A stretch of DNA of 63,004 nucleotides, the filler included, from Kipferlia bialata (lineage: Eukaryota), in the NCBI GenBank assembly GCA_003568945.1. It is 5 parts of 5 records of this genome, joined end to end, with 100 filler letters (N's around TTAATTAATTAA, not from the genome) between each part and the next. Parts side by side here need not be neighbours in the genome. Positions count along the whole stretch, not along the records: positions 9,468 to 24,452 come from BDIP01000754.1; positions 24,553 to 39,519 come from BDIP01000755.1; positions 39,620 to 54,578 come from BDIP01000756.1; positions 54,679 to 63,004 come from BDIP01000758.1; 1 more part is not named here. One strand, written 5' to 3'. Positions 11,697-62,887 of this stretch are shown here, in pieces. The translations under genes were made by a program, and so were the position numbers. The notes under the pieces are model-generated. The model had not been told where the DNA came from. It searched no databases and was given only the letters and a program-made list of their open reading frames with translations. Each line of letters begins with the position of its first letter. Position 1 is the first letter of the stretch.

Positions 11697-14600
11697 CTAT
11701 CTAGAGAAGTGCTTCCGAATGGCCTCTGTTATGGCATTGGCTCTGTTGGTGAGATATAGTCTGTGGAAGTGTCACATACAAAATAGTATATATTATATGA
11801 ACATTGTATTGTCATAATTGGTAAGAATATCATTAGTTTGCAAGTGGTACAGTCATAAAATAGGAAGAATGTGAACATGGAGAGAGAGAGAGAGAGAGAG
11901 ACATACCTCTCTCTACTCATGGCCCTGACTGGAGAGTGGAAGGATAGACGGAACCCTCTGTGGTGGCACTTGGTCCTGAAGGGTCAATATCTACACATCT
12001 AATAGATACAAATATACATAAATCACACAATCAATACATATACATATATATATATATACTGTATGATCAATAGACGGAACCCACGGTGGTGGCACTTGGT
12101 CCTAAGAAGTCAGACAGTATATAGTCAATAGCATATACCAAGAATAGATACAAATGTAGATAGAAACTTGTAAATTGAATATAATCACCCACTTTGGATG
12201 AACGAAGTCATCGAACACTGTGCATGATGTGAGCTCTACCATCTGTCTCTGCAGGTATAGAGTGAGGTCAGCTCTGAACGCATCGTTGTTGAAAGGGGTG
12301 GATGTGCCTCTCGCTCCCTCTCTCTCAATGACGAGGGAGACATCTCTCTGGGATAAGAAGAAAGAGACAAATACATGGATAAATCGGGTGTAAGTAGCAA
12401 ATACATATATCAGGGGAGATAGAGGATATAGTGACAGAAAGAAGAACTAATGAATTGGCATTGAGGACATAGACAAAGAGAGACAGAGACAAAGAGAGAG
12501 AGGAAGATACCTGGAATAGTAAGGGGTGCAGGCAAGGTGTGTCAGCTGATGCCACACCAACAGTGTCAGCGGAATATGGGGTGTAGGACTCTCTGACAAA
12601 CACATGGGTCATGCTATCTCCAGAGAGGAACCTGATCATTAGAGGGAGAGAGATCCATATTGACACAAGTATATATACATACATTAGATATATATATATT
12701 TTTATATACATTAGAGAGAGACAGATATATATAGAGTATACAATTGAACATTATAAGGATAGACAATGAATACACTGTGTACCTCTGTCCCGTGTTCTGG
12801 TAGCCACATGGGTGGTACCCCAGTGCTCTGAAGGGCTCCAGGGGGAATGGGTAAAGGGCCTAAGTCAGGAGAGAGAGAGACAGAGAGAGAGACATAATAG
12901 ATATGTATACCTTCAGAATCAATCCGCTCTACTCATGTCATGTATTCATATATCGTATATAGTACACACATTACTATTATTGTATACACATATGTGTGTA
13001 GGCTATATATACCTTTAAGATCAACCCGCTCTGCCCTGTCATGTCATGTATCTGCCACATTGAACATATGCATATATATACAATATTGAGCATACTTACT
13101 CATGTATTAATGATATATAACTATACCTTAAGAATAAGTCCACCCTGCCCTGCCAGGTCCTGTATCTGCACCCTTATTACACATAGATACAGTACCATAC
13201 ATTCATAGTCATATACATTGATACATACCTTCAATATGAGTCTACCGTGCCATATCACTCTCGCTCACTATATACAACACAATATGTATATGTTGTAAGT
13301 GTATTCACTAACACATGGTAATGGTATATACCTTTAAGACCAACCCGCTCTGCCCTGCCATGTCCTGTATCTGCCACGTGTCCTCATAGCGTCTGAGGGG
13401 TGAGATATATAGTACTTAGACACTACTGCAAGTGAATATATATACAACATGTATATCCTGTATCTGTCAGGTGTCCTCATAGCGTCTGAGGGGTAAGATA
13501 TATAGTACAGAGACCCTTTGCATGTGAATATACAGTATATACACTACATGTATATACTGTATCTGCCACGTGTCCTCATAGCGTCTGAGGAGTCAGGATA
13601 CTAACACCCACGCTATATAAGTGAATACAATACATTGTAATCTGTGGCTGATACTATTTGAAAGATGAATACCTAATCTCCGACTCCCCTGCTGTACCAC
13701 TCTTACAAAAATGTAGAATAGACATATATATATAGTATACTAACTGGACATATACATGTATGTATATGTTCAGAATGATACCTTATCTCTGAGTCCCCTG
13801 CTGTCCCGCCCTGACTATACAATGTATATGTATACTCAATGTAACAACTTATTGTTAAACTACAGTAGATAGTGTATTATACCTAATCTCCGAGTCCCCT
13901 GCTGTCCCGCCCTGGCCCCTGGCAAGGGTCATCCAGACCTGGTGTAAGAAATATATATATTAACAATTTTATACTAATGTATATTGACGCAAGGGTCACC
14001 CAGACCTACAACGAGTAAATACATCCAATAGAGAGTGATAGCGAGACCTTGGCATGGTATAAATCGATACATACCTCCCCTCCCTCCGCTAGAACTGCTC
14101 TCCCACCGTTCTCAGTACGGTCAATGGATGCTACTGCTGCAGCGAATGTGCCTCTGAGCAGGGATCTGTGGAGCTAGGGATTAGGACAGTAATAGATACA
14201 ATTAGATACTTACTATTTCAATATAATTTCTGTATATACTAACTATACTGATTCATTTCTGGTCAAAGTATACTGAAGAGAACTCGAATGTATAAGTACC
14301 ATAGTGAATAATGCAACACCTGAATCTAATTTCTGGCCATTGGCCTCATAGTAACATATATCCCTTCATAAACGTTACTGTAAATGAACATTTGCATATA
14401 CAATTGCATCACCTGGATCTTGTTTCTGCAGGTATATATAAAGATAGATATGGGTAATGATTGCATACATACCTGGATCTTGTTTCTGGCCTTTGGTCTG
14501 GGTGGGAACTGGGGGAAGTTGAACACTACTCTGTCGAAGCCAGAGCTGGTGTTATCATGGAAGACTCGCCATTAATTACAATATACTTGAATTAATGAGT

Positions 14601-15284
14601 AGAAGTCGATCACTACTCTGCCGAAGCCAGAGCTGACATTAGGGGACACAAATATAAACACTATATATACAATGACTATACGAACGTATATCCATCGCTA
14701 TATATATACATATACCTAATTATACCCCCTAATACATACTAAATCACACACATACTATATGTCCATACCTTAAAATATCCTCTGGAAGTGTGTTGACTAT
14801 ACTTGTGGCGTCCACTCCATTACATCACAAACATTCTGTACAGAAGACTTCATCCCATACATTGATACAATATATACTAACTAGGTTAAACACCTTATAA
14901 TGTCCTCTGGCAATGTGTTGACAATGTCTGTGGCATCCACTCCATAACATACAGGGACCTGAGATAAGGTATGAGACTGTATGAGTATGCACACATTCAT
15001 ACATAGACGTGAAAGCATAGACACACATAGATTCCTGCCGTCCACACCATAGAACAGGGACCTGGGTAAGAGAGAAGGATGAGGTACACCATACACTACT
15101 CAGTACTGTATATACTGTCACAAGTATTGAGAGAGAGAGAATGTTAGAGAGACACAGACAGGAAGAGACAGATAAAGAAGGTTAGAGAGAGAGAGAGAAA
15201 GCTCATTCACCTCATGTGCTGCTAGAGCGCAAGTGATATTATATATACTAACTCATATACCATTGCCAGATAGAGAGGGAGGGG

Positions 15285-15322
<38 letters not shown>

Positions 15323-15367
15323 AGACTCACTCACCCCCTTTGCTGCCAGTCTGGCTATGTTGGATGC

Positions 15368-15407
<40 letters not shown>

Positions 15408-15885
15408 TATGACTCACTCACCCCCTTTGCTGCCAGTGTGGCTATGTTGGATGCGTATATAGAGAGGTAGAGAGACAGAAAAGAATAGTAATATAGAATA
15501 GTAATATATAGAGAACACTCACCCCCTTTGCTGCCAGTCTGGCAATGTTGGATGCTGCCTCGGGGTAGCTGGGGTAAGGCATATCCATAAGGCATGGTAA
15601 CACAACACATATCACTCCATACCTTGCTAGGAGCACCTCCTCCGAATCATAACAGGTTGCTGTGAGGGATACTGCCATCCCAGTACTCATCCCCTCCCCC
15701 TTAGAGAGAGAGAGAGTGCTCAGCATGCTGACACTGAAGGAGAAGTCACCATCACCCAGCACCAGCACTCTAGGCACTCTCTCTCTCTCTCCACTCATAC
15801 CAGCATCCCCCAGTGCACTAACACAGTCACTGGCTACATCTAGACCCAGATTGAGAAGGGAGACTGCACCAGCTGGGTCAGACAT
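11697..15885 (-). CDS. FDXACB1: FDXACB1-like protein: DUF2431 (Bmt5-like rRNA methyltransferase) plus C-terminal FDX-ACB domain
   Basis: VLVLGDGDFSFS, LTATCYDSEEVLLARYPEAASNI, YGVDAT, FDRVVFNFPQ, VWMTLARGQGGT, DTWQIQDMAGQSGLVL, GYHPCGYQNTGQRF..MTHVFVR, FDDFVHPK; ATG 15885, TAG 11699-11697. Confidence 0.85.
12911..13592 (-). repeat. Exon-echo cluster around FDXACB1 exon 13392-13332
   Basis: Four copies of exon 3' end plus GT (ending 13229, 13127, 13013, 12911) and two copies of acceptor plus exon 5' end (~13456-13490, ~13557-13592). Confidence 0.92.
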
Positions 15886-16177: not shown

Positions 16178-17856
16178 ATGTTCACCCAGGCTGTGTCTGA
16201 TGCCATACGAACAGAGGGGACCCTAGAGGACACGTATCAGGTTGGTGTGTGTATGCTGTATATACATATATACTTGTCATGATGGAGACTGGTATATATG
16301 TATATATATATGGTTGACTCATTAATGCTTGAAGGAGAGGACATGTGTATCAGACCTGTTTTCATTCATTTCGGACTGTCTAGCACCCCCCCCCCCAAAG
16401 CAACATCACATATTCATATGGGTGTTCTTTCTGAGTCAGGTTGTCATTTAGCAGGTGGTATCTCCCTCTCCCGTCTGTGGGTGTCTATGAACACGTAGTA
16501 TATCCCTCTGTTCTGACTGTTAGGCTGTCTATGAGCAAGTTGGTATCTCTCTCTCTCTCTCTCTCTCTCTGACGTCTCTATCTTTGTCTTTCTGTCTTCT
16601 GACTCTAAGGCTGTATATTAGGAAGTAATCTCACTCTCTCTCCCCTCTCTCTTCTGACTCCTAGGGTGTGTATGAGCAAGTGAGGCATGTTCACAAATAG
16701 TTCTCTCTTCTCTATCTATCATCCCCCCCCCTACCTCTCTCTACTGACTCCCAGGCTGTCTATGAGCAAGTCAGACATGTCCACACCAGAAACATGGACA
16801 TTCAGGCCCTACTTAAGCAGGTACATGTAAGAATATATATATGGAGAGAGAGAGAGAAAGGGAGAGAGAGAGAGGGCAGGAACATGGACATGCAGGCACT
16901 GTATATTTCTAACTATGTATACGTATACCTCTCACTTACATCAAGAGAGAATGTTATGAAGGAGTACCTCTCTCTCAGACATCGCAAACATGTGTATTGG
17001 AAGTCTTGTAATACCCTCTCACCCCCAGCGCAAGCTCCTGCCCAATGGTTTGACGCCCAACCAGGTATCATCACAGTCTATATACGCAGTGAATATTTTC
17101 ATACATTAGGATGAGTAAGTAGCATATACATATTGCTCTGTAATCCGTACTATGTTAACCACAGGTCAAGAGCATCCTCTATGAGCTGTCTGAGTTGGAT
17201 AGTAACAACGCCAAGGGACATGCAGGACTGGGGGAGAGGGAGGGGAGGTATGGTACATATATATATGCATTGTCTATTTGTGGATAAATGATTATATCGT
17301 GTTCTAATCTTTGGTTAGTGTCCTCTGTTGTGGAGGAGATGACACCTACAAACCTTCATATTATATGTGTGGTTTTGATGTTCTCTCTCTCTCTCTATAT
17401 ATATATATATGTTCATGTATACTTACCCCAGGTACCTGTCCCCTGTGGTGGAGGAGAGGACATTCGGCATAACTACTTGATATACCTAGTTTTAGATTAC
17501 TACCTGTATCTACATATACATATGTCTACCTATCCCAGGTACCTCTCCCCCGTTGTGGAGGAGACACATGCATTCCTACTCAATTAGTGACTTGTGAATT
17601 TCTACCTATACTACCTGTTTTAGTAACTCCCCCCCTTAGATACCTGTCCCCTGTGGTGGAGGAGAGGACACTTATCACACCATTGATATATAGTCTCAGT
17701 TATATAGTACTCCATATATATATCTATATAAATACGTTACTCACCCCCTTAGATACCTGTCCCCCGTTGTGGAGGAGAGGACATACGGCATGGCACACGG
17801 GATAGGGAGGTATGTATACTACTATGAAATGTTGATATTTACGTTAATAGTCACCA

Positions 17857-17899
<43 letters not shown>

Positions 17900-20800
17900 G
17901 ACATTCGGCATGGCACACGGGATAGGGAGGTACGGACATATGTGATTACGCATGTATGCGTGCCATATGTATATGTAGAAGTCTCTTGGTAAATATATGT
18001 TTGATAACTGACCCTTAAGGATTGGTAGGTATATATATGGTATCAATTCGTCTCTTTTTTATGTTTGCATTCTGACCCTCAGAGGTGGTGACCTTACAGC
18101 TGCCCAGCCCAAGGCAATAGGTGGGTGTACATCTTTCTATATTATTACGTTTACATATACATATATTCATAAATATTCTGGAATCTGGGCTCTACCCTGA
18201 TGTTCCTCTTGCCTTGACACATATACTCACATACATTATATGTATTGGTGCTCACATATATACACATATATGTCAGCATATGTATTTGTTGTCTCGTGAC
18301 TCACCCAGGCTCTACCCTGCTGTCCCTCCTGACCTCACGCATGGCACACGCAGCAGTGAGGTAATACATATATAGATATAGAGAGAGAGAGAGAGGGAGA
18401 GAAGGAGAGAAGGAGAGAGAGATAGTATCTGTTGACATCCCGCCTGGCACACGCAGCAGTGAGGTATTGTTTTAAGAATAATTGCAATCACTTCAATATA
18501 ATATATGCATAGAGCTATATAAGAGAGTCTCACCCCCATACAGGCTGGGTACACCAGTGTCAAGGAGACCACAGTGCTACCGGTGGCAACAGGTATATAT
18601 GCCTATATATTAGTATATAAATGTATTTCCTTGCATATGAACCTATGTCTCACTCCTTAGCATGTCCATTAAGCTCTCTCCCATCTCCATCATGCCGTAT
18701 ACCGCATATACATAGAGTATACATAGACATATATTTATATATATATGTATATGAATATACATCATCTAACCATTCAGGCATGTCCATCATGCTGTCCCTC
18801 CTGTCTCTTAGGTCCATACACCACTACATGTACATTGAGTATTTTATATGTATATACATATTAATTAGCTCTGTCTAATATCTAGGCATGTCCATCATGC
18901 TCTCTCTCCTGTCCCTCAGGGCCTTGAACCCTGGTGCAGACTCTGTCATATGGTGCAGATGTGACCAAAAGTCATGCCCAAAGGTATATAGTATATACAT
19001 ATGAAATTTACTAGGCATATGTGGGTGTGAATTTACATGTATCTCAGACCTGATATACCATAGTGTTTCTATTATGCATATACACATACACATCTGTATA
19101 TATTCAGATGGCAGCCCCACTCTTTGCCCAAGTTAACTACTAATCATATAAGGACATATTTATATATGTATGTGAATACACTTCTTACCGTAGGCTGTTC
19201 AGATGGCCGGTCTGACCCTTGTACCCGTTGATGGTATCCTGGAGACTAATCAGAGTAGAGAGGCGGAGAGAGTGGTGACTGACCTCACTGGTGTGGCCAG
19301 GGCCATAGAAAAGGTGTGGATACTCATTATACACTATTAGTTACTCTATTCTATTCCAATATTCTTTTTACTTCTGACCGGGGTGGCCAGAGCTATAGAG
19401 AAGGTATTGTTCCTCGTCTTACATATATACAAGTGTTGTAATAGAAAACATTGTAGTGTATTGATGTATTATATATATATATATGATATTATGAACGGGG
19501 TGGCCGGGGCTATAGAGAATGTTTACGCTTCTATGCAATATTTGGTAGGGATTGTCCTATGTATGTTATGCTCCACCTCTCTATAAACATATACATACAC
19601 GCTACATATATTTTACACTCGACCGGGGTGGCTATAGTGAAGGTGTGGATACATATTATTTAGAAATATACATATGTGTGTATGTGTGTGAAAGGCTAAT
19701 ACAAAGGAATCACTCCCCCGTGTCCTGTGTGTGATATGCATCACCTCTCCATCATATGTATTCACTACATGTTATACACATACTATGTATTTCTGATTAT
19801 TAGGTCACCCTCCCCCGTGTGTTGTGTGTCATATGCACCACCTCGTGCTTCAGTCCAAGGGAGCCAGACAGGGTGCCGGAGATAGCAGGTATATATACAT
19901 ATATACGAATGAGTTAATATATATATATAGAGAGATAGAGAGAGAGACAGATGTTTCAGTCCAAGGGAGCCAGACAGGGTGCCGGAGATAGCAGGTATAT
20001 AGCAATACTATACATGAATATATATGTATATATATACATGGGCAGAGAGAGATGGAGATAGAGAGAGAGCCAGACAGAGTGCTAGAGATGGCAGGTATAG
20101 TGCCAATATGTATACTGTACTGTATTTTTCTGACTTATAGGCATATGCAGTGTGCTCAACATACCTCTCCTTGTCAACAATGCCTATGGGGTGCAGAGTA
20201 AGACATATACATTATAGGTGTTACTCACTCATAGGCATATGTAGCATAACTGGTGTACATCTTCTGGTCAACAATGCCTATGGGGTGAAGTATATGAAAA
20301 GTGTGTATTCTATTGCTATGTGTAACTGACCCTTAGGCATATGTAGCATTACTGGTGTACCCTTCCTTGTCAACAATGCCTATGGGGTGCAGAGTAAGAC
20401 TGCGGCCAGGCTAATCAGCCAAGGCACACAGAAGATTCCAAGGTGCCCTACTCCAACACATTTCCTTCGATTGTGTGTGTGAATGAGTATGATAGAACAA
20501 TCGGTTCTTGTGATCTTTGCATATGTCTCCTAACGTCAGGTTGACTGACGATGTCCACTGTGTCCTGCAGCGACTGAAACCCGACGCATATATCACAAAT
20601 GGAAGTTCTCAAAGGCCATCACTCCCTCTTGATCTGAAAGGTACACATGTACTTGACAAACAGAGCACCGATAAACTAGCGATATATGTTTATGTATATA
20701 TATATGTACATATCATCTTATAGTAGGTCGAGTAGACCTAGTCATCCAGTCCCTCGACAAGAAGTCTTGTATACATCCATTAACCCATGCACATACTTAC

Positions 20801-23641
20801 ATACTTGTATAATAGATGTATAGACACAAGAATCTTCTAATACTAGGCCGCGTTGACCTAGTCATCCAGTCCCTCGACAAGAACTTCGGGGTGCCAGTTG
20901 GGGGTGCCCTACTCACTGCGCCAGGTATTATATTAGATAATACTATAATAGTACCATTATACATATATAGTGTATGTAGAGTATATTGTACATAATCTAC
21001 TTTTGGGGTGCCAGTTGGGGGTGCCCTACTCACTGCGCCAGGTAGAGTGTACATATACCTCAGCAGATGAATATATTCCTCCATTCTCTTAGATGGGCCC
21101 GCGCTCTACCCTCTGTCCTTTATCTGATATATATTTCTTTAAGTGTCCCTCCCTCTCAGTGGAAATCTCTCTCATCCCAGCCCGTACCCTTCCCTCCCAC
21201 CCACTTCTCCCATCCACTCTGTCCAGACAGGAGAGAGGGGTCATAATGAGGTATTGCTTCATATGGGTACTCATCGTGATTAATAACTTCTATTGTAGTC
21301 ACTCTAGTGTGACACTGACACCAGAGAAAGGGCCCAGTCTGACAAGGCAAAGAGAGAGCAGCCATCACTTTTGGCAAGGTATCTCATTAATCAGTTTGCG
21401 TCCCACAATATTCAACACACTTTCACGATATCCTTACCCCTGGCGCTGTTTCCTCCTACCTACGGCAGGGCATTTCTCTGTAATGTTGCACTAATCAGAA
21501 TACTTTGTATACAGAGTACACCTTCCCTTTCTTTACCCCAAGCCTCCTATTCATATATCACAATACATCTGACACTATAAATACAACAATAATTTCCTGT
21601 ATTCTTACGCGTAGGGTTGTGTCCTCCTGGCAGAGCATAGGTTGCATATCTCTATTTATGTGTTACATTATATATATATGTATATCCTCACCCCCTAGGG
21701 TTGTGTCCTCTTCCCCTGGCAAATGATCAAAGCGTATACACTATATTCATATCTATGTGAAGTATGCTTACCCTAGGGTTGTGTCCTCCTACCCTGGCAG
21801 GGCATCGGGGGCAGAAGTCATGGACTTGTTCTGTACGTGACTTGTTGTTGTGTTGCTGGGTCTGGAAAGTAAACACTCATCCTCATATTCTGTCTATTCT
21901 ATATTCTGTATAGTATACTAACAGTTTAGGCACCCTTCTGGGTCTTGGTGAGTCCGGTTGGAAAGAAGTCCTGGAGCAGAGGTGCGTTTTGGACATTACA
22001 TTCTATTCTCAATATGTAGCTGATTGACACTCCTTACACCAGGATAGATGTACGCGCCTACCTGACTGCTGAGGTCACGGTACTCTGCAACAGACACAGG
22101 TATGTCACTGTACACCAATATACACATACAGTTGTGGTAATTGCTGGTTGTGCATCGACCGCAATTTTTTTTGAGTGGGCGGCATATATCCAAACCGTGG
22201 TCACGTCACCCTGTTGCCCATCAAACACAATGTATATAAATGAACACACTATAAGCAGAAAATTGTATTGTGTGTCCATACATATGCTTGGGTACCCACA
22301 CCAGTGACCACCTCACTCTGTTGCCCATCAAGCACAATGACATCTCCTGTGCTGTAGTGTTCAAGGAGATGGGGGAGGATCAGTGCAAACAGGTATGATA
22401 TACTCATCTGTATACATAATAATGTATATACATAAATCATGCAGTAGTGTTCAAGCGATGGAGGAGGAACAGTGCAAACAGGTATATGATTGCTTATGTA
22501 AATACTACTCAACAAGTAGTGTCGTTGTTGACACTTTCTCACTCTCAGGTTGGCTCCCTCATGTTTGTGAGGGGTGTGAATGAGTTCATATGTACATATG
22601 TATATGATACAGTATATATATTCATGTGTATATAAATATCATTTATCATATATTTACCCTAAGGTTGGCTCCCGCATGTTTGTCAGGGGTGTGACTGAGT
22701 TCATATGTACATATGTATATGATATACGATATATATATGTTCATATGTATATAACTATTAAGTATCATATACTTACTCTAAGGTTGGCTCCCGCATGTTT
22801 GTCAGGGGTGTCACTGGGTCCAGGGTCTGGGTCACACAGACAGAGGACAAGGTATATATATATAAATATATATTATATATTTGTATTATTATTATATGTA
22901 TACATACGTTGTGTGTATTGTGTCAATGGGTCAAGGGTGTGGGTCACACAGGAGGAAGATAAGGTAGGCATGTAATCTAGATGAGTAGATAGGCAATATA
23001 TATACATTTCACATTCTATATATTACTGGGCCTCAGGTCTGGATCACACGACACGACAGAGGATAAGGTAGGCATAGGATATATATATATATATTGTGAT
23101 ATCTATGTTGTATATTATTATCACCTGGGCCCAGTGTTCTCTTCACACACTATCTCCGTCTACTTCTTGGACTGTATATTCCTAAAGATGAAGATAACAT
23201 GTTCAACCGCAATAACTCTTTTCAGACGGTAGGACCTGTATCCTTTACAGGGCATATTGTATTCATGCACGCATACGTGTGTACACTTCCCTTTTCATTA
23301 CAGAACTGTACTTATTCACTTACCCATCAGCTGATTGGCCCTGTCTCCTTCAGGGCCTGGGGATCCCATCACTCAGAGTGGACTGCCCCGTACATCACCT
23401 TCGCCACTGCTGTTGGAATGACAAGGTGAGATGTATGTATGCACTGGTATATCAATATTTCATATACTTCACGATTGACTCCTACGTATGTTTCTATTAC
23501 TCATACTTGTGTTCTATGTCTGCGTAGTATTGCATTCTACATATATCATATTTCTGTGTCTCTGACGTCAGGTCTGAGGTAGACAAGGGCCTCTCAGTCT
23601 TTGAGGAGTGCCTGCTCTCGGTGCTCAAGCAGCCCGTGTAA
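16178..23641 (+). CDS. SEPSECS: O-phosphoseryl-tRNA(Sec) selenium transferase (SepSecS), ~20 exons
   Basis: LDSNNAKGHAGLGEREGR, HGIGRGGDLTAAQPKAIG, VLPVATGMSI, WCRCDQKSC, TTSCFSPREPD, VNNAYGVQS, IQSLDKNFGVPVGG (PLP lysine), SYPGRAS, YITFATAVGM; ATG 16178, TAA 23639-23641. Confidence 0.95.
17432..17929 (+). repeat. Exon-echo cluster around SepSecS exon 17753-17809
   Basis: Acceptor plus 5'-half copies starting 17432, 17539, 17640; 3'-half plus GT copy 17900-17929. Confidence 0.92.
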
Positions 23642-24552: not shown

Positions 24553-24602
<50 letters not shown>

Positions 24603-35830: not shown

Positions 35831-35880
<50 letters not shown>

Positions 35881-36290: not shown

Positions 36291-36334
<44 letters not shown>

Positions 36335-36892: not shown

Positions 36893-36933
<41 letters not shown>

Positions 36934-38702: not shown

Positions 38703-38734
<32 letters not shown>

Positions 38735-39470: not shown

Positions 39471-39519
<49 letters not shown>

Positions 39520-39619: not shown

Positions 39620-39668
<49 letters not shown>

Positions 39669-41299: not shown

Positions 41300-41339
<40 letters not shown>

Positions 41340-46032: not shown

Positions 46033-46070
<38 letters not shown>

Positions 46071-46389
46071 TATACCTTGTATAACATGACCGTACTTCAC
46101 CCCCCAGGGAGTGCGCCTGGGTCTTAGCTGTGCTACCATGTGGTATACATACATATATATATCTACACTGTATATCATGGCTATCCCTCACCCCCCAGGC
46201 AGTGCGTCTGGTGTTGTGACGTTGGACAGTCAGCAGACACTGCTCGGGGACAACCTCATGAAGGTAAGGGGGAGTGGTGTGTTATTGGTGTGTGCTTTGT
46301 AAGAAGTATGTAACTCCATCGATCCGCCCCTCCCCCACCCCCAGGCCGTGTCCCTAGGAAGGGTGCCCATATCAGACGTGGTCAGGTAT

Positions 46390-46441
<52 letters not shown>

Positions 46442-49494: not shown

Positions 49495-52400
49495 TCAGAA
49501 AGATGAGCTAGAATCATAACTGGAACTGCTATCGTCAGAAAAGCTCTCAGTGTGGTTATTCCCACTTCTGACCACTGACATATTCCCTCCCACAGGTGGA
49601 AAGCCTATAGGGGTGGTACCAGAAACCTGAGAGTTAGTGGTATTGCTAACTCAGTATTGTATGATACTTGGCATCAGTATCAGTATCAGTATCAATGGGA
49701 GAGTACATACAGGAGGTGTATATAGCAGATAGTTCCCATAGAAGACGTATACATGTGCAGAAACTGTAAATTACTGACTGGTGTCTATATTCCAATACAT
49801 AGCTGTCAATTAATATGGCTGCATTTGAGAGTATTGGTCTACCCTTACCTGCATAGTAGATGGGGCAGGGGGATAGGTCGGTACTCCATGGGTACTAGGG
49901 GGTGCAGGGTAGACATCTTCCACGACCTAATTGGTAAGATACAGTAGATATAGATCCAACCTATGGTCTCCCGCTTATATTGGTGTGGAGTATTGTGTAT
50001 GGTACTATATATTGTGATTCATATTGTTCCTTATTGAGGAGTATCAGTAATAAAGTGTATGATTTCACACCTGAGTGTTACCTCCTGGACTCTGGTAGGC
50101 ATATGCAGAGGCGGTGTAGGGGTCCTAATGGTGAGTTGTACGGGCATACACTGCCTCTTAAACAGAGTTGGTGGTGGAGTAAGATGGTGGTACACAGAAG
50201 AGTTCTATACTACACTGCTATTATATACAAACATGCAATGATTACTAGCCACAGCGAATGGGCCCTGTGAGTTTGTTAAGGCAAAGGAAATATCAATAAA
50301 GTGTCACGTGCACTCTACTCTATCTGTATATACACATCGATATACACGCTTATAATCTGTGAGTATCTGCGTATCAGCTCACCTGAGCCTCAGGTACAGG
50401 CATAAGCGGCATATATATATATGTCTGTATTGACGTCTATACTGTTCGGCATTTGATGTGTCTGACCAGCACCCATGGTCAGGGCCACACACACATATAT
50501 ATATACATATTGTTATGCATATGTCAAGAGTATTACCTGGGCCACAGGTACCGGCATTGGCTGTATGTCAATGTCTGGCATTGCCTGTGTCCTACTCAGG
50601 GCCATACCCCCAAGGTCCAGCCCAGCTAGGTCTGCATCCGAGATGAAGTGGGCCTAGTGTTTAGTAGTAACTGAGCGGGTAAGGTAGCAATGTGTGTTCT
50701 TAACTTAATATTTAAGGGGAAAGGATCATGTGACATCAACCGTGCGGATATTCGTACTGAATTGAATCGGAAGAAAGGTCACACCTGCTGTCTGAGCTCC
50801 TCTCTTCTCTCTCTCTCCTCTCTCCTCTCCACCTCCTCCTTTCTCCTGACCAGTCTCTCCTGTGCTGCTAGGTTACGCCGCATCTCATCCTCTCTGGGGT
50901 TAGAGAACATGATATATGAATGAGTGTATACGTAACAGAAAGCAGTGCGTCGGATAAGAGTGGAGTTTCCTCACCTAGTTGCCTTGTGTTGATACTGTAC
51001 GGTATACATATACATATACATATATAGTTAAACATACATACCTTGCTGCCTCCCTGGCCACTGTCTGTCTCTGTAGAGTGCTAGAACCCGCAGTGCTACT
51101 GCACATCTGATTACCCTGGGTAAGAGGCAGGAAGACATAGTAGGCCCTTCTTTTAAGGGAATACGACATAGACAGTTTTCGATTTTGTGCCTCCCGTTAA
51201 GGCAGAGTTGTCAGTATGACACAATGTTGTTCTGTATACCTGGCCCCCCTCGATGTGCATGGGTTGGTAAGAGTCGCCCATACCCTGGTCACTTGTACTG
51301 TACACCCAGGGCTCATTAGACTGGTTGGGGTTATCGGGGGTCTCTCTTCTGACGTCAGATCTAAGGTCTAGCAGTATATAGATGCAAAACCGAAAAAAAC
51401 ACCTTACTCTCACCTATCACTTCACAATTTTACTGCAAAATATCAGCTCAGTAGAATATGAGACAAATAGTAAACTCCACACATAAAAGAACATGCCGTG
51501 GAGTAACTGATTCCCAACCCCACCTCTTTCTCCTAGATCTGACCCCCAGGTATATCACAGAAGCCCAGAAGCCACAGGTTAAGAGAAGGATACACACCTA
51601 ACGTCAGATATATACATGTGTATATACACATACATATATACACATACCCATTTACGGAGAGAGAGAGAGGATATCACCGTTGTGCATAAGCGCTAGGACG
51701 ATGGGTACTCATACCAGAGTTAGGATAATTACTATATACATAGAGAGAGAGAGAGAGAGAGTAAGATCCACATACATACAAATATCCAAATACAGTGTGC
51801 CTAAATATTGACTGCTGTATATATATACATGTTTAACATAGAGATAGAAGATACCGACTTACTATTTCGATGGTCTCGGTGTAACATGCACTGTCTATGC
51901 ACACATTACATGTAAAGAGGTACATGTGGAGAGACCCCGCATCAGAGGCAAAGGTCACTAGGGTGAGAGACATATATATCCATAGATATATATATATGCA
52001 TATACATATGTATATATAGAGAGTATGTGAAGTGGTACATTCATTAAGGAGCCAGCCTCAGAGGCAAAGGTCACTAGGGTGAGAGGGAGAGAGAGAGATA
52101 TATAGAGAGAACACGTAGGTGAGGTGGTATGTGTGTAGAGACGAGCTCTCAAAAGAGACAAGAATCACTGGGTGGAGACATATATATGGATAAACCCTAC
52201 ATCTAAACAGGTGGAGAAAGAGAGAAAGAAAGTGAGTATATTGGGGGTCAATCTATACATATGTATTATTGTATATGTATATGGAGAGAGTGTTTGAAGT
52301 AGTACATTTGGAAGTAGCCGGCATGAGGCTAAAGTGACTAGGATGAGACGCTCACGGGCATATACCCTATATCTAAAGAGGTTGGAAGATGCAAAGAGAG

Positions 52401-53506
52401 AGAGAGAATGACCCTGCATGAGAGACAAAGGTGACTGAGTCAGAGAGAGAGCGAAGGTAAGAAACAGAAACGGGGGATGTCGTGAGTGGAAGATAGATGT
52501 AAGAACCTGCACAAGGACTGAATACCTATGGCAGAAATAGAGAGAGTCTGTGTATTCGTACCGTATACACAGTTGCAGTGGTTGTCCAGGTCAGTGTTGG
52601 AGAGTTATAAGATTGTCACACCGTTATCAAATCTGTAAGAGTGTTCAATGATAACAGTAGGTATTGTCTCACCGTATACACAGTTGTAGTGGTTGTCCAG
52701 GTCAGTTGTGATATCGAAGAAGACATCGCCGGAGTCGGACTGGGGTAGGCAAACATAGTTAGTAATAGAATAGAAGGCATCTCAGAGCAGAGCAGATATA
52801 TATGTAAATGACTCATGTGTATACATACGCACCATCAGATACACGCTGTCCGATGTCTGGGAGGATGTGCAGTGGGCCTGACTGTAAGATACATATATAT
52901 AGATAAAGCAAGTATATATATACTACATACATGCACCACATACATAGACATATGTTCATGTATATATACAAATATATATATATATGTCTGGGAGGATGTG
53001 CAGTGGGCCTGACTGTAAGATACATATATATATACCACATACATACACCACATACATAGACATATGTTCATGTATATATATAAATATTTATATATGTCTG
53101 GGAGGATGTGCAGTGGGCCTGACCGTAAGATACTTATATATATATATATATATATATGGATAGATAGATAGAGATACCAATATATATAGACTACTATGAC
53201 GGAGACACCATGAAGTAGTTAAACGTAGATACACACAGAGCTATCTATGGATGATAGAGTCAATAGGACAATAGGAAGTTAGTCTCTTGCGGCCAGTTAG
53301 ATTTTTCTGACAGGTCACTATGACCCTAATTCTAAACAGTGTATGTCTATCCCAGAGGTGATAGTCGGAAACATTGCTACTTCTGTACACATATACATAC
53401 ACACATATATATATCTGACCTTGTACACACTGAGTATGTCTGTGCCATATGCAGTGGTTCCCACGCACTCTACTTCTCCATGGTGTGCATCATCAGGGTA
53501 GTAGAT
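49495..53506 (-). CDS. Hypothetical single-pass membrane protein, 5' part missing
   Basis: Exons IYYPDDAHHGEVECVG.., SDSGDVFFDITTDLDNHYNCVY, TM-like VCILLLTCGFWASVIYLGV followed by RSRRKR, charged helix EDEMRRNLAAQERLVRRKEE.., Ser-rich end ..DSSSSF-TGA; phases not all verified. Confidence 0.45.
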
Positions 53507-54885
53507 CTATGATGAGGATGATAAGAGGAAGTGTATATTGTGTAGTATATAGTAGTAGAGCAGGTGTCAGCAAGGGCTATACAAATATATATATGTCTCT
53601 CTCTATATAATTATGAATGTGGATATAGAAAGCGGAGGACATGTCAACATTGTTTTATCATCAGGGTAGCAGAGAAATGATGAGAATGATATATACACGT
53701 TGTGATGGGATAGACATTACAGAGGGGTGAGAATAGTTGTACCGCGTCTTTCAAGCGGAATCATTGGAATGGTAGAGAGTAGAAAGGGGGGGGGGGGAAG
53801 TAAGAGTATATCGATGTTGAATACCTTCCCCCCTTGTATGTACAGGTGACTCATTTGTTAACACTATATACCCACACTATATATATGGAGAACTGACTCA
53901 CCCATGTCTAAACCTATATCGGTGTCTATATCTATGTCTATATCTGTATCTATATCTAAATCTATGTCTATGTCTATGTCTATCTATAGCTCCAATTCTA
54001 TCTATATATATGAACTTACCCATCTGTCCTAATCTATCTGTATACCTATATATATATACAATATACTCAACCATCTGTACTGTGTGCTGGATGCATACCC
54101 TTTCACTCTCACACACTCTCTATACTACTACACTCCCTCTCTCTCCATACATATGTATATCTCCATCTGTACATATCTATATATGTACCTATATCTATCT
54201 ATCTATCTATGTATATGTATACAATATACTCACGCATATGTACTGTGTGCTGGATGCATACCCTTTCACTCACTCACACTCCCTCTCTTCAAATACAATC
54301 CCAAACTATATATATATATATATGCACTCACCCATCTGTACTATGTACTGGAAGCATCAACTATCGCACACTCACACTCTCTCTATACCCCTACATTCTC
54401 TCTCTCTATATCTACATTCTCTCTCTGTTTATAGACAGACTTAACCATCTGTCTTATTCTATCTATATACCAATATCTATATATGTAAACAATATACTGA
54501 CCCATCTGTACTATGTGCTGGAAGCATCAACTATCGCACAATCACACTCTCTCTATTCATATACATTCTCTCTCCCTCNNNNNNNNNNNNNNNNNNNNNN
54601 NNNNNNNNNNNNNNNNNNNNNNTTAATTAATTAANNNNNNNNNNNNNNNNNNNNNNNNNNNNNNNNNNNNNNNNNNNNGTTGGAAACACCCCCCCCCCCC
54701 AAACCCCCCCCCCCCCCCCCACTATACTCTGCCTCTCCCTCTCTCTCTAGCCCTCTCTCTCTTTTTGTCTAACTATTAGGAGACTGTCCCCATTTGATCA
54801 CCCAGTTCCTCTCTCTCTCTCATTCTCTCATTCTCTCTCCCCCCTCCCCCCGCCCCTCTCTCAATATTTATACCTCTCACCTCAG

Positions 54886-57759
54886 GAAACCATCACCAGT
54901 CTGACCACCCAGTCCCACTCTGCCTGTCACAACACAATACTGGGCAGTGCCACGGTATGTGCACATCACCATACTATAATCCACTACATGATACATATAT
55001 GATACAATATATACAATATGATACTGGGCAGTGCCACGGTGAGTGTATATTGCTCTACTCCAAACCTACACAACAATCCACATGTGGATAGTGGTACAAG
55101 TGTGTACTACTCTGCCTGACGAATGTACACTTATTGTTCTGCCCCTTGGATCCTCGAAGAGACATGCAATGCCATAAGCTATATACTGTATATTACAGGT
55201 GTAGTATAGTGCATTGTATTGTGGTTGTTACTATGCTCACCCATAGGTCCTGGAGGAGACGTGCAGTGCCATGTTCAGAGGGGAGGATGATGCAAAGTGA
55301 GTACATAAACTATATGACACTCAGTGTATAAGACCTCTGTATGTGAGTATGTCATTCTATTCTTGCCACTTGAGGTGCCATGTTCCGGGGAGGATGGTGC
55401 AAAGTGAGTCTGTACTGTATAGAAACTCATGGATAGATATATGTGATTGCCCGTAACCTGACTTCCTGATAGCTTAGTGGAGCCTACATATATATGTGTA
55501 TAGTCTATATATATATACTCATCCATAGGCATATTATAGCCCTTAGCATGAGTTCTCTCACTATTACAGTCGCTCACCTTTAGGCATATAATAGCACTCA
55601 GCATGACTGCCTGTCAGTTGGGTGCAGCAGGGCATATATATATACCTACATATATATATACATACATATATATATACATATGCTCACTATCAGGCACATA
55701 ATAGCCCTTAGTATGACTGCCTGTCAGTTGGGTGCAGCTGGACAGCCGATGCCATGTGACCTACAGAGGGTACTAGGTATAGTGTAGACATATACATACA
55801 TACATATATACATATATATATATATGTCTGTGTGTGTATAGTGTTTTCAGCCTCAGAGACATGCCCTATCTCTCTCTACATATATATTTATGCAAATTTG
55901 CATCCAGACCTCGCCTCCAGGGCCGGAGACCTATCCTCTCTCTCTCTCTCTCCCTTTGGGCAAACTTTCTCTCTAATACATTCTACCCTCAGACATCCCC
56001 TCCAGTGTCAGTCACACTCTATATATTCAACTATATATTCCACCCCCCCCCCTCTTCTGTATATTGTACTCACCCCAGACCTCTCCTCGAGTGTCAGAGA
56101 CATATCCCTCACAACACTGGGGCAGAGTGAGGAGACTGAGAGGAATAGGTACGCATATATAGTAATGTATATGTATGTATATCGAAGCATTGTGTGTAGT
56201 AGAATGTTGTGTCCCTCACAACACTGGGGCAGAGTGAGGAGACAGAGGGGAGGAGGTACGGTACATCATGTACTCATACGTGTGTACATGATGGAGTGTG
56301 GTCAAGTAAAGTCAATTCTTATCTCTAGGGCTGAGCTGGCCTTCTCCGTGTCCCAGTGTATCTCCCTCCCTCTCTCTCAAAACTCCTACCATCCACATAC
56401 TCACACTCACTATCAGGGCTGAACTGTCTTTCCCTTAAATATGTATATGTATCTGACCATACATCTCATCTACTAGGGCTGAGCTGACCCTCTCTGTGTC
56501 CCAGTGCCTGTCTGACCTGTACACCAGCCCAACAGGTGAGTGAATATGTATAGTATGAAGTGACTATTCTTACTGTATTCAAATAGTGTATAGTTTTAGC
56601 CATGCACACTCTCTTTCTCTCTCACCCTCCCGCTATTTCACTTGTATACAACAACCACCTGTCCACCCTGGGTCAGGTCTATATAGTGTACAGTATACTA
56701 TACAGATACTAATTTTATAGATACTATGCTAACCACTAGGCTACCTAGTCTATAACAGCCATCTGTCCACTGTGGGTCAGGTCCATAATTCATATGATAT
56801 ACATACACTATATACATATATATGTATAAATGAATAGTATATCTATACAATACACACTCTTACACTCAGGATACCTTGTATACAACAGCCACCTGTCCAC
56901 TGTCGGTCAGGTCTGCTTCTACGTGGCCCATGATGCATTCAATGACAGGTACACAAACACTCACTCTCCCTCTCTCTTTGTCTATATATATGTGTACTCT
57001 CTCTATGTATGTATATACACTTGTTGGAATGCTTCCACGTGGCACACGACGCATTCTCAGACAGGTACTCTCTCTCTCTGTATATAGACATATATATATG
57101 TATATAAACATATATATATGTTTATATATGTGTGTGTGTGTGTTCTTCTCACTCTGTACTTATTTCCAGAGTCTCCGCCGTGGCTGACCAGGCACTGCAG
57201 ACAGCTGCAGAGCTATCCCAGAGCATACAGGTATGTATATACACTCTATATGGTGCATCTCTCTCTCTTCATGTGTCTCTCTGACCCCCAGACCTCGGTG
57301 TCTGACCTGAGGGACTCGGTCTCAGATGGTGAGTACACATTACTAGTATATGTACATATAGGCCGGTCTGGCCCTCCAGGCACGTAGATATGTGCGTGTG
57401 TCAGAATGTATATATATATATGATGTACATATACTTACCTTAGGCATGGCCGGCCTTGCCCTCCAGGCACAGCTGACAGCACAGCAGATGGGGGATCAGT
57501 TAGGGGATTTAAACAATAGAGGTGTGTTATGATATATATATAGAGAGATAGAGAGAGAGAGAGGGGGGGGGGATGACAGCACATCTGAATGGGGGTCAAC
57601 TATATGTCTGAATGAGAGAGCTATGTTTTATATCAAACTATATACTAATATTACTATTCCCCTACTGTGAATGAAATCGATACTATTACATCTGCTCACA
57701 TCCAGCCTCTGAGATCAGCATTCAGCAGGCTGTGATTCATTTATCTACAATACTATAGT

Positions 57760-57793
<34 letters not shown>

Positions 57794-60700
57794 GTATGTA
57801 TATATATGTATATATATGCTAACCCCCAGCCTCTGAGATCAGCACCCAGCAGGCAGTGATAGTGGACATGCAGCAGGTGTGTATGTATGCATATATGTAT
57901 ATAATTGTATATGTATATATATATGTGTGTGTGTGTGGGGAGGGGGCATGTACAGGGCTCTATCAATAGTGTTTATGACTATTGTTACAATTATATCTGC
58001 TTATATCTGTATTTATATGTATGCAGTGATATATATGCAATGTACAATGTGACCAAGTATTCAGTGATATTTACATACAAATACCGATGTATATGTATAT
58101 CTCAGAAGATGGTGGGACGCTTCCTAATCGAAGAGACTTCTCTCTCTCTCCCCTCTGTCCCCTAGTTACACCCCAGGGTGTCATATCCCTGATCGAAGAG
58201 ACCCTGGACGGTGCAATACAGACTGCGCTTGAGCACCTGATAGGGATACAGGATATCACGCTGGGTCTACACGGGAGGTATACTCTCTCTCTTTCTCTCT
58301 CTCTCTATATATGTATATACTTGTATATATATTTATTCTTCTCTGACTCTATCTATGTATTTATTCTTCTCTAACTCCAGTATGGCCTTGATGCAGTCCC
58401 AACTACAGTTTGACAAGGCATCTCTCTCTCTCTCTCATATCAGTATGGCCTCTATGCAGTCCCAGCTGCAGATCGACAAGGCAGAGCTGGTGGCATTGCA
58501 TAGAGAGGTACAGTGTGTAATAATACATACATACATATATATATATATAGTTACTATATAGTTACTATATAATATAGTATCTATATAATAAAATGTAGAG
58601 AGAGAGAAGGTATAGATTGACAAGGCAGAGCTGGTGGCACTGCATAAGGAGGTATAGTATTGAGATATATATACATATATATATGTGTGTGTGTATGTAT
58701 AGAGAGAGAGAGCGAGATGGAGATCGACAAGGCAGAGCTGGTGGCACTGCATCGAGAGGTATACATGTAGTATGTATATATAAATGTGTGTGTATATGTA
58801 TGTATAGAAGAGAGGGAGAGAGAGAGACATAGGGAGGTACAGATCAATATATATTTATATACTTACTTATGTATGTATATATATATAGAGACCCATAAGG
58901 TACAGATTGACAAGGCAGAGCTGGTGGCACTGCATAGGGAGGTATTACAACATCAAGTGGTGTATTCTTATACTATAATATAGTGTATAGTATGTAACCA
59001 GCTGCAGATCGACAAGGCAGAGTAGAAGTACATGTAGGGTGAGAGAGAGCAGGACTGACATTGCATAGAGTTGAGACTTGTGTATTGGGGTGGAAGTGTT
59101 TCTCTCATTGTCTCGAATCCATGTATAATTGATATTGAGAGGTACTAACACCCAGGGCATTGAGCAGAGGCGTGCACTGCTAGACTCCCCTCTCTCTCTC
59201 CCGCTATATCATTGATATGTAGAGTAATGAATATATATGTGTGTACAAACATACACTCACCAGTCCATTGAGCAGAGTAGTTGTATATATAGATGTATGG
59301 GAATATAGTCATTACATGTATACACTCACCAGTAGGGCATTGAGCAGAGGCGTGCACTGCTCGAGGACCAGTCAGAGCTACTGCAGATGTCTAGGGTATG
59401 GTTATATATAGTATATACTCATTTACTGCAGTCGTATTTTGTACATTACTCTAGCAGTACACAAATAGTTTAGTAAATAGTATACAACTGTATACTAGGA
59501 CCTATCAGGAGCATCATGCTGCCTTAGCTGAGTTGGAGAAGGACACTGCGTATAGATACTATTTACTCTATTCAATAATTATATCTATATATATGTATAT
59601 ATATCACAAATCATCTCCATACGTATATTCACCCCCAGCAACATAGAGATGCCATGGCTGAGCTGGACAAGGACACAGCTGTGGTCAGCGCACGCATCAA
59701 CAACATCGAGGATGGGATAGATAGCGCTGCGAAGGTACGATGGAAATACAAGTATTGAGGACCCGATATACAAATAGTATACTGCAGTGTTCAGCACCCG
59801 TATCAGCGGGATATAGTACGGGATAGACAGTGCAGCAAGGGTATCCAGTAGCTATGCAGCCATCTATCTCTCTCTTTCTCTTTCTCTCTCTCCCTCTACA
59901 CCCTTATTAGAGGTTCTCAGTGATATGCGTGAGAATTCAGAGGAGACCATACTTCTCTCTCTCTCTCTCTCTCTCTACACCCTTAATATCAGGTCCTTAG
60001 TGATATGCGTGAGAGTGCGGAGGAGACCAGCGAGACGACAGTCAAGATATTGAAGGCTCAGGTGTGTGAACTAACACTTCAAATGTGTATATACGAGTTA
60101 CAATTACAAGAGATCCATCACGTAAGTGACAGCAAATAGAAACACATTCTATAGTGAAACTGTATCTTGAAGTGCATACTATTATTGTTTCGGAGATTAA
60201 CCCCAGGAGGCCGTTGGTCAGCTCATGAGTGTGCTGCCATTCGTCACAATGTCAGGGTATGTGCATGTATATATATAGTNNNNNNNNNNNNNNNNNNNNN
60301 NNNNNNNNNNNNNNNNNNNNNNNNNNNNNNNNNNNNNNNNNNNNNNNNNNNNNNNNNNNNNNNNNNNNNNNNNNNNNNNNNNNNNNNNNNNNNNNNNNNN
60401 NNNNNNNNNNNNNNNNNNNNNNNNNNNNNNNNNNNNNNNNNNNNNNNNNNNNNNNNNNNNNNNNNNNNNNNNNNNNNNNNNNNNNNNNNNNNNNNNNNNN
60501 NNNNNNNNNNNNNNNNNNNNNNNNNNNNNNNNNNNNNNNNNNNNNNNNNNNNNNNNNNNNNNNNNNNNNNNNNNNNNNNNNNNNNNNNNNNNNNNNNNNN
60601 NNNNNNNNNNNNNNNNNNNNNNNNNNNNNNNNNNNNNNNNNNNNNNNNNNNNNNNNNNNNNNNNNNNNNNNNNNNNNNNNNNNNNNNNNNNNNNNNNNNN

Positions 60701-62887
60701 NNNNNNNNNNNNNNNNNNNNNNNNNNNNNNNNNNNNNNNNNNNNNNNNNNNNNNNNNNNNNNNNNNNNNNNNNNNNNNNNNNNNNNNNNNNNNNNNNNNN
60801 NNNNNNNNNNNNNNNNNNNNNNNNNNNNNNNNNNNNNNNNNNNNNNNNNNNNNNNNNNNNNNNNNNNNNNNNNNNNNNNNNNNNNNNNNNNNNNNNNNNN
60901 NNNNNNNNNNNNNNNNNNNNNNNNNNNNNNNNNNNNNNNNNNNNNNNNNNNNNNNNNNNNNNNNNNNNNNNNNNNNNNNNNNNNNNNNNNNNNNNNNNNN
61001 NNNNNNNNNNNNNNNNNNNNNNNNNNNNNNNNNNNNNNNNNNNNNNNNNNNNNNNNNNNNNNNNNNNNNNNNNNNNNNNNNNNNNNNNNNNNNNNNNNNN
61101 NNNNNNNNNNNNNNNNNNNNNNNNNNNNNNNNNNNNNNNNNNNNNNNNNNNNNNNNNNNNNNNNNNNNNNNNNNNNNNNNNNNNNNNNNNNNNNNNNNNN
61201 NNNNNNNNNNNNNNNNNNNNNNNNNNNNNNNNNNNTGTTACTGTATGTATGTACATATATGCAGTAATGTCTGTCCTTCTATCTGGCAGTGACTGTGGTG
61301 CTGACAGTTATAGCTGGCTGTATTAGAGGTATGTCCAACACCATTTTCTAATTAATACTGTCCTTGCGGGGTGTATTAGAGATAGGATATAGACATTCAT
61401 ATACACATTCATACATTCATATATGGGTATATATACACCAGTGTCTGTCCGTCTCTCTGGCAGGGTAGAGTACTCACTGATACTGATACTGTTACTGGTT
61501 AACATGTGTCCCTCTGCAAATAGCACATATACATTCACTGCCTAGATATTTCATAACTCTGTCTCTAGTCTATTCATGTTCATGTAAAACTTAATATTTG
61601 CATTATGTCCCATCACCTTGCATCTCTCTCTCTATCTCTCTCTCCTACACATTTACATTGACACATAGGCTCCAGGTCCCGTCCTCTTGTCTACAAGAGT
61701 CCCCTCCTTGTATATACCATGTGCCATTTGTCATAATATGAACAAGCATACTAACCACTAGGTTCGAGGTCCAGGCCCCTTGTCTACATGACTATTGGTG
61801 CCGTCACAGAGGCAAGCACGAGACAGGTGTGTATAGATACTCTCTCACACACACAAACCCATACTTCATATGTACATACATTCTGGAGAGAGGTAGAGAA
61901 TAGTGATGCATAACTCTCTCACACCTGCCCGACTGCAAATCTTCGGAACTTGTACATATCTGTATCTCTCTTCTCTCTCTCTCTCTCTCGTTCACTTATA
62001 GTATTCCAATACGACATTTTCCTTAATGATCATTTAGAGTACTTATTCACATGCCCTCACTGCCTCTGTTATCTCTCTCTCGATATATATTTATATATAT
62101 CGATTCATGTATATTCCATATATGTCTATATTCCGATATATGTGCATGTGTATACCTGTCTCATCCCTTGGCCCTAGCCGCCTCTGTTCTGTTGAGCCTG
62201 GACATGTCTCTTTCTCTCTCCCTTTCTCTGTATATATATATACATATAGAGTGTCTGACTAATCTTAGGCACTTGCCGCCTCTGTCCTGTTCAGCCTTGA
62301 CGTGGGTGCCACAGACACAGAGTGGACACCGTTCGTAGGTGTGATACTCTGATACGTACTGGTCAGTTAGACTCATTATGTGCACTGTCTATTCAGCAAT
62401 GTGGTCTTACCTAAGGTACTAATCGGATGTTCCTCCTTGACGCCTGTGTGTGGAGTGTCAGACTCATATTCACACTGGGCGGACTGAGTGCATTATTGAG
62501 ATCGGCTGGGTGAGTATGCTTGTAATTATTGAATGTACATTCATGTGTATATACATACTCATTATGTACATTCATGTGTATGAATGTATTCACACTGGGG
62601 GGTTTGAGTGCGTTTTTGAGATCAGCTGTGTGTGTTATACACACTAATCTCTATATATGTCCAAATTATCATCTTACTCACTATTCATTGACTCACCCCC
62701 AGCGTAGTGTCTGGTGAGAACAGGGTGACAGGGTGGGATGTCAGATATACTCATGTAGTATATTATATATATATGCTGTATCTCTCATGATTTACATTAT
62801 TGACTCACCTCTAGGGTTGTGTCTGGTGAGAACAGGGTGACTGGGTGGGACGTGGATGTCATCAGACGGGCTATGGGCAAGGAATAG
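54886..62887 (+). CDS. GEX1: GEX1/KAR5/Brambleberry family nuclear-envelope fusion protein (5' end and one internal block in gaps)
   Basis: Cys-rich domain SACHNTILGSAT|VLEETCSAM..DAK|HIIALSMTACQLGAAGQPMPC..SVSQCLSDL..GYLVYNSHLSTVGQVCFYVAHDAFNDR, long coiled coil, then hydrophobic segments TVVLTVIAGCI, SRPLVYMTIGAVTE, CVWSVRLIFTLGGLSALL. Confidence 0.8.
58381..59020 (+). repeat. Exon-echo cluster around GEX1 exon 58444-58507
   Basis: 5'-half copy at 58381; 3'-half plus GT copies 58615-58651, 58722-58758, 58905-58941; partial copy ~59000-59020. Confidence 0.92.

Follow-up and report, generated by a model that had tools for sequence, protein, structure and literature searches.

Polarised half-exon duplicates in the introns of seven Kipferlia bialata genes and their possible origin in repair from a diverged homolog

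In a 63,004-nt stretch of the Kipferlia bialata genome (assembly GCA_003568945.1; five parts joined end to end, hereafter the window), 59 of the 95 introns examined in seven genes (62%) contained short copies of one end of the neighbouring exon. These copies, 109 in total and here called echoes to tell them from the live exon beside them, are real, polarised half-exon duplicates present far beyond chance, and their differences from the live exon are biased toward synonymous positions. They are interpreted here as scars of break repair copied from a diverged homologous gene copy and not from the identical sister, one-sided and closed by end joining, an interpretation to which a probability of about 0.5 is assigned.

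The survey comprised 102 exons, each aligned to both flanking introns, with a local alignment score of at least 26 taken as an echo and with exons against foreign introns as the control. The control matched in 0.65% of 7948 exon/foreign-intron pairs, a rate at which approximately one echo would be expected in the 190 pairs surveyed. Exons of the SepSecS, calcineurin A-like and PPWD1-like genes were taken from exact spliced matches to database proteins, and those of the FDXACB1-like gene were called by hand. In SepSecS the annotated exons 18524-18592 and 21015-21041 were removed before counting and 18309-18360 and 18544-18592 were added; an ambiguous exon near 61270-61328 was excluded.

All 57 upstream echoes were centred on the 5' half of the exon, 52 of them beginning within 4 nt of the exon start, and none reached the 3' end. 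Among the 52 downstream echoes 50 were centred on the 3' half, 45 finished within 4 nt of the exon end and none began at the 5' end. Neither whole-exon copies nor copies anchored at the far exon end were present among the 109, the closest being two near-whole echoes (39 of 44 nt and 57 of 65 nt). The edge-anchored echoes mostly retained the splice dinucleotide (AG in 43/52 upstream, GT in 43/45 downstream), and six out of six further echoes in a held-out minus-strand gene had identical polarity. Such a polarity would follow from plain geometry without any special device, since a head-to-tail copy that has one of its ends inside an exon and the other in an intron, and that leaves one exon whole, will always place a 5' stub upstream or a 3' stub downstream. 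That reversed copies were absent indicates that the echoes were born as halves and are not worn-down whole exons. The original prediction had proposed a consistent polarity and had given as its example a SepSecS exon with two 5' copies upstream and two 3' copies downstream; the self-alignment of exons and introns bore out the first, and the array was found in its place (Table 1). The proposed pervasiveness held within the seven genes and failed between 23.1 and 34.6 kb, where no near direct repeat was among those listed despite short introns at 26.2-27.1 kb.

The aligned echoes were 16-57 nt long (medians 29 and 33 nt), with a single copy on 55 of the 77 exon sides and a maximum of five, and the units were spaced at a median of 104 nt (quartiles 93-118). 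An exon-length ceiling as the cause of this unit size was rejected, no correlation being found (rho 0.00). Intron length increased by 100 bp per echo (r=0.85; median 275 with echoes against 97 without), and 109 units of 100 bp amount to about 10.9 kb of the 23.0 kb of total intron, in line with the expectation that echoes contribute much of the intron length in the genes surveyed. Upstream and downstream echoes did not co-occur above chance (18/22/16/32, p=0.28). The 5' and 3' echoes of one exon met within 1 nt in six of 18 exons (null 1.75, p=0.005), a tolerance picked post hoc, with p=0.04 at 2-3 nt and p=0.10 at 5 nt; in the SepSecS exon 20847-20924, for instance, the 5' echo ends at exon nt 37 and the 3' echo starts directly after it. 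These meeting points, suggestive only, give the impression that a new exon was set into a split old one. Beyond terminal exons, echoes were restricted to one of six last exons and none of three first exons, the single case being the last SepSecS exon, with two weak copies past the stop codon (23699-23803, scores 23 and 27). No donor is present there, which hints that the copied boundary is the one between coding and non-coding DNA rather than the splice site.

Contigs of DNA and RNA reads were compared with the window at positions 9470-18300, the SepSecS example at 22.5-23.1 kb lying outside this region. The DNA run may itself be the source of the window, the check being one of an assembly against its own reads in one sample, and the RNA run is presumed to be RNA, its contigs mapping as spliced pieces. 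In this region 15 of the 26 echoes shared a DNA contig piece with the exon they derive from, as expected from the prediction that the echoes are genomic, and the remaining 11 straddled the ends of contig pieces or of the region itself; one of the arrays had three of its four upstream echoes together with the live exon on a single piece (17319..17929). Depth was 328-419 over the eight DNA contig pieces listed, none of which had gaps or other letters or belonged to a half-depth class.

The 12 live exons of the FDXACB1-like gene sum exactly to the length of its RNA contig, leaving room for live exons only, and the five listed pieces of this contig leave gaps that are filled by the hand-called exon lengths. 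An RNA contig supported two exons and one junction of the unnamed gene at 9561..11220, and a loose RNA contig end in the upstream gene carried the live donor side and not the echo. In 18 of 20 bins the RNA depth was within 0.35 of that predicted for live exons only; of the two exceptions, one had cover that was not predicted (15075-15369, by a GA repeat) and the other had less cover, a repeat being skipped. Regular splicing was undisturbed in the FDXACB1-like gene at the level of contigs and in one sample; contigs drop rare isoforms, and absent cover on echoes is no proof against rare forms.

For a dead copy beside a constrained exon, the expected rate of differences at 4-fold sites is about double that at 0-fold sites. 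The comparison of the nearest echo with its exon on the 77 exon sides gave 85 differences at 1652 0-fold sites (0.051) and 107 at 446 4-fold sites (0.240), a ratio of 4.66 (bootstrap confidence interval 3.4-6.5; p=4e-9 against 2, with sites taken as independent). Simulations of a neutral echo beside a constrained exon, passed through the same detector in 180 runs, produced mean ratios of 1.84-1.89 and a maximum of 2.93. The ratio was 4.55 after base and CpG standardisation, 4.3-5.1 with each of the seven genes left out in turn, 5.6 after trimming 8 nt at the inner end and 4.3 in the 25 echoes of the RNA-covered region; the codon counts of 'GEX1' were taken with a corrected reading frame. Against an expectation of 1-2, the ratio between echoes was 3.3 in 39 pairs and 5.2 in 9 pairs. 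The held-out gene had 6/119 against 4/32 differences with the frame of one exon mis-set, counts that say nothing about the ratio. The corrected divergence at 4-fold sites (d4) was 0.29, and per echo it was uncorrelated with the divergence at 0-fold sites (d0; rho -0.11). Stops made up four of 104 non-synonymous changes and indels were present in 10 of 109 echoes, showing that the echoes do decay. The simplest reading is that of two phases, a divergence while both copies were coding followed by neutral decay.

In a junction profile that is independent of reading frames, identity started at about 0.9 and had fallen to background past roughly -12 at the acceptor and +7 at the donor, and likewise in echoes at least 93% identical. 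The intron flank was homologous in 20 of 109 live-echo pairs and in nine of 48 echo-echo pairs, and significant gapped homology past the splice signal of the outermost echo was found in five of 40 upstream and six of 36 downstream arrays. The simulated power of flank detection was 0.91-1.0 at 10% divergence and 0.11-0.67 at 29%; plain duplication of the age given by the 0-fold sites would leave flank homology in more than 90% of pairs. The fillers, i.e., the sequences between the copies, are thus about as diverged as the 4-fold sites, and alignment of the fillers becomes difficult at just such a d4 of 0.29, so that one number fits both the filler and the mutation anomalies.

The fillers were 45-94 nt long, which is approximately the size of plain introns, AT-rich and intron-like. 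Dinucleotide runs of at least five units were present in 34 of 71 fillers against seven of 21 plain introns, and the microsatellite-like character attributed to the fillers in the original prediction was not upheld. A strong donor motif was found in one of 40 upstream fillers, and a branch site with YAG, present at 74 of 95 real intron ends, in none of 35 downstream fillers; such a lack of second splice sites is what selection would require. Recursive or two-step splicing was ruled out, the fillers being without the sites it needs. The six best filler-filler matches were AT-rich or low-complexity, with no filler family recognised within the window; terminal inverted repeats were found in none of the 71 fillers, and only five of 71 matched the intron across the exon above the 95th percentile (p=0.17).

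The absence of a named mechanism assumed in the original prediction does not hold for the class of repeats, which is already known as mirages (PMC3087553) and exon stuttering (10.1101/2025.09.16.676548). The amphioxus mirages in Adh3 and the globins BflGb6 and BflGb9 are, like the echoes, tandem copies of exon-intron boundaries at the 5' or 3' ends, many of them retaining AG/GT with regular splicing undisturbed (PMC3087553), and in Kipferlia both kinds of boundary are copied as well. The BflGb6 units, however, are 81-100% identical with the intron part included, while the intron part is homologous in the above minority of Kipferlia pairs and minisatellite-like homology of the whole unit is confined to a minority of arrays; furthermore, mirages were reported at few loci (PMC3087553). 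In avian stuttering the exon edge and splice site are likewise copied into the adjacent intron, which expands, and the exon part has a comparable median of 36 bp. It concerns 3.4% of introns on chicken dot chromosomes, is tied to the GC-rich dot chromosomes and forms arrays of a median of four and up to 44 copies over kilobase spans (median 1751 bp; 10.1101/2025.09.16.676548), in contrast to the mostly single copies with a unit of about 104 nt in Kipferlia, which lacks such massive local expansion. The 37-bp variable number tandem repeat in intron 7 of human F7 also has silent donors downstream, the most upstream donor being used, but it is a single, homogeneous locus on the donor side only (PMC1557585). 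The mechanism of mirages and stuttering has been called unclear or speculative in the respective descriptions (PMC3087553, 10.1101/2025.09.16.676548). The anatomy is thus known, and the unusual features here are the non-homologous filler and the synonymous-biased divergence, together with a far higher density. No report of such echoes in Kipferlia was found in a literature search with subscription papers and supplements outside it, and the string 'duplicat' had no matches in the main text of PMC5874029.

One-sided strand invasion, or synthesis-dependent strand annealing, closed by end joining leaves a duplication with one seamless and one end-joined border; to our knowledge, neither a pervasive role in building introns nor the use of a diverged allele as the template has been recognised for it. 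The mechanism that we infer for the echoes takes as its base the head-to-tail copies of about 104 nt, the stop of homology near the splice signals, the synonymous bias and the exclusion of the echoes from the one fully reconstructed mRNA. If alleles differed by approximately 0.2-0.3 at neutral sites, only the exons of about 70 nt would pair well. After a break in an exon, one end would invade the exon of the homolog and be extended by copying past the splice site, reaching 45-95 nt into the intron of the homolog; the copied tail, unable to anneal back, would be end-joined to the other broken end, leaving the old half exon with the old splice site outside and the new intron end inside. Unequal exchange between exon and echo may then multiply the copies, and selection would retain only those products whose filler brings no second splice site; splicing would use the donor and acceptor bordering the whole exon. 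Intron gain by tandem genomic duplication also proceeds by a short intragenic duplication that copies splice signals, but it creates a new intron, whereas in Kipferlia an existing intron grows and obtains a new end.

As for the repair background, metamonads are described as lacking proteins of non-homologous end joining and having alternative end joining in full or in part, and Fornicata as having no Rad51A and using Dmc1, of which there are two, in its stead (PMC8516963). In a hypervariable fungus crossovers were concentrated in exons (PMC4209137), and one of the proposals made for stuttering in birds is inaccurate strand invasion at meiosis (10.1101/2025.09.16.676548).

Several observations weigh against a diverged homolog as the template of repair. 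A second allele was not seen: at 95% likeness the DNA run had no other letters within 9470-18300, each of the three database proteins forms a cluster of one member, and a metagenome scan gave at best 52% identity among 80 loci, none usable as an allele. The FDXACB1-like gene, the sole one fully fixed by RNA, had no 4-fold excess (15/282 at 0-fold against 3/58 at 4-fold sites, ratio 0.97), the calcineurin ratio was 2.2 with few sites, and three of the seven gene models (the unnamed gene at 9561, 'GEX1' and the membrane-protein gene) were hand-called with open frames. Approximately one fifth of the pairs had homologous intron flanks, and the upstream flank score rose with echo identity (rho 0.40, p=0.011; downstream 0.19, not significant), as it would after a plain tandem duplication. 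Finally, the narrow range of unit length is left unexplained by repair from a homolog.

The competitor that survives best, itself rather unlikely, is the classical mirage, in which one splice site is included in a short tandem duplication templated by the sister or by the same chromatid, and the intron part of the duplication then turns over much faster than the exon-derived part by slippage. The polarity, the unit size and the kept splice signals agree with it, and so do the dinucleotide runs, the neutral ratio of the FDXACB1-like gene and the homologous fillers of the 20 pairs (e.g., at 15301-15555, 42308-42585 and 52853-53144). However, it predicts a ratio near 2, which the observed value exceeds, as it exceeds all of the simulations, and a flank homology detectable in nearly all pairs at the 0-fold age; gene conversion between copies in cis would lower the ratio and should be unable to raise it above 2. 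Considerably less probable are old cis duplications whose exon part was repeatedly refreshed by gene conversion from diverse live-exon alleles while the fillers drifted. This would account for the low d0 alongside the high d4, for an echo-echo ratio exceeding 2 and for the abrupt loss of identity at the splice signal, but it requires the same unobserved allelic diversity plus frequent out-of-register conversion, and the meeting points of 5' and 3' echoes are left unexplained by it.

Concatenation of diverged haplotypes during assembly is very improbable. The window derives from a scaffold with gaps, two haplotypes would show a synonymous bias and the DNA run is possibly the window's own source, but echoes share contig pieces with their source exon without any half-depth class, there are up to five distinct copies per exon side and the RNA contig matches live copies only. 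A duplication of whole exons, with a phase as mutually exclusive exons and a subsequent loss of one half, would yield a coding type of divergence, and the two near-whole echoes agree with it; it is equally improbable, because loss of the outer half should be just as harmless, yet no whole or far-end-anchored copy exists, and the fillers do not match the intron across the exon. That the fillers are mobile elements of the Introner type with long target-site duplications, which a direct repeat around non-homologous DNA does resemble, is hardly credible in view of the low-complexity or AT-rich best matches, the absence within the window of a dispersed family and of inverted ends, and the synonymous bias left unexplained.

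Table 1. Positions in the window of the genes surveyed and of representative echo arrays
Feature	Position	Strand	Remarks
Unnamed gene, 3' part	9561..11220	+	echoes in 3/6 introns; hand-called exons, open frame
FDXACB1-like (BMT5-like) gene	11346..15877	-	12 exons, 1474 nt spliced; echoes in 7/11 introns; PF10354
Live exon 13392-13332, two echoes on each side	13013..13584	-	FDXACB1-like; survey alignment
Two downstream echoes of exon 15568-15523	15335..15454	-	among the few arrays with clear intron-side homology
SepSecS gene	16178..23641	+	echoes in 15/22 introns; spliced match to P0004
Four upstream echoes, live exon 17753-17809 and one downstream echo	17319..17929	+	SepSecS; survey alignment
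Live exon 20847-20924 with 5' and 3' echoes	20727..21041	+	SepSecS; survey alignment
SepSecS live exon (example of the original prediction)	22783..22851	+	spliced match to P0004
Two upstream echoes of this exon, acceptor and exon nt 1-40	22549-22588, 22664-22703	+	34/40 and 37/40 identical
Two downstream echoes of this exon, 3' half and GT	22920-22951, 23025-23067	+	29/32 and 32/39 identical
Calcineurin A-like gene	34056..37495	+	echoes in 5/14 introns; spliced protein match
PPWD1-like gene	40771..48954	+	echoes in 15/24 introns; spliced protein match
Four acceptor echoes of exon 45508-45618	45176..45451	+	PPWD1-like; survey alignment
Four donor echoes of exon 46653-46728	46798..47137	+	PPWD1-like; survey alignment
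Held-out gene	51863..53690	-	4 hand-called exons, 6 echoes
Putative 'GEX1' gene (label from the original prediction)	54886..60256	+	echoes in 12/15 introns; hand-called exons, open frame
Putative membrane-protein gene, last four exons	61762..62887	+	echoes in 2/3 introns; hand-called exons, open frame

Single exons were 100% identical to three Kipferlia bialata database proteins, a Ser/Thr phosphatase, SepSecS and a WD40-cyclophilin, and protein or Pfam matches supported the identities of SepSecS, the calcineurin-like phosphatase, the WD40-cyclophilin and the BMT5-like first exon. The SepSecS model P0004 has two oddities. It includes as an exon 21015-21041, a part of the 3' echo of exon 20847-20924, which results in a doubled 9-residue motif, and it omits the exon-like 18309-18360 and begins the next exon at 18524. 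Both (21015-21041 and 18309-18592) are probably annotation errors caused by the echoes; the use of 18309-18360 with the acceptor at 18544 puts the frame off, for which a micro-exon or an unusual acceptor are both possible.

Outside the survey, a further gene at 38600-39400 had one upstream and one downstream echo-like repeat (38751/38845 and 39146/39232), and approximately six stacked donor-ending repeats were present by an assembly gap at 53890-54578 on the minus strand, their live exon possibly being in or past the gap. The region 25800-33744 contained genes without near repeats, including a short-intron gene that runs into a UvrD/AAA helicase-like open reading frame (27384-29267) and two open reading frames of 777 and 520 amino acids, both without Pfam matches. 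A phosphoglycerate kinase gene with a long first exon (PF00162) was located at 24804-25502 on the minus strand, and a tRNA-Leu(CAG) at 49232-49314 between two echo-rich genes. The gaps at 9329-9467, 24453-24601, 39472-39667 and 54579-54720 were mostly flanked by long runs of C or G, and the short AT-only spacer between two 44-N runs in their interior is an assembly mark and not biology.

Echo units account for about half of the intron DNA in the seven genes, and introns may have grown chiefly by this route in the one intron-rich fornicate for which 124,912 introns have been described (PMC5874029). The density, 62% against 3.4% of introns on chicken dot chromosomes (10.1101/2025.09.16.676548), and the synonymous bias are the notable parts of the finding. 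The ratio of 4-fold to 0-fold differences offers a cheap test of sister versus homolog as the template, usable on any genome with such repeats, and the arrays, in which intact decoys lie about 100 nt away from the site in use, serve as natural experiments on how splice sites are chosen. The arrays also appear to mislead annotation, as in the SepSecS model that takes an echo as an exon. The wider claim, that most long introns of Kipferlia bialata were built by repair between strongly diverged alleles and that each echo is the fossil of a displaced allele, is tentative and stands at somewhat less than even odds. If the diverged-allele reading is true, one genome would record a hidden hyperdiversity and an exchange between homologs, through sex or parasex, the splice sites would have been replaced wholesale, exon after exon, and the codon-position test could tell whether the mirages of animals share this origin.

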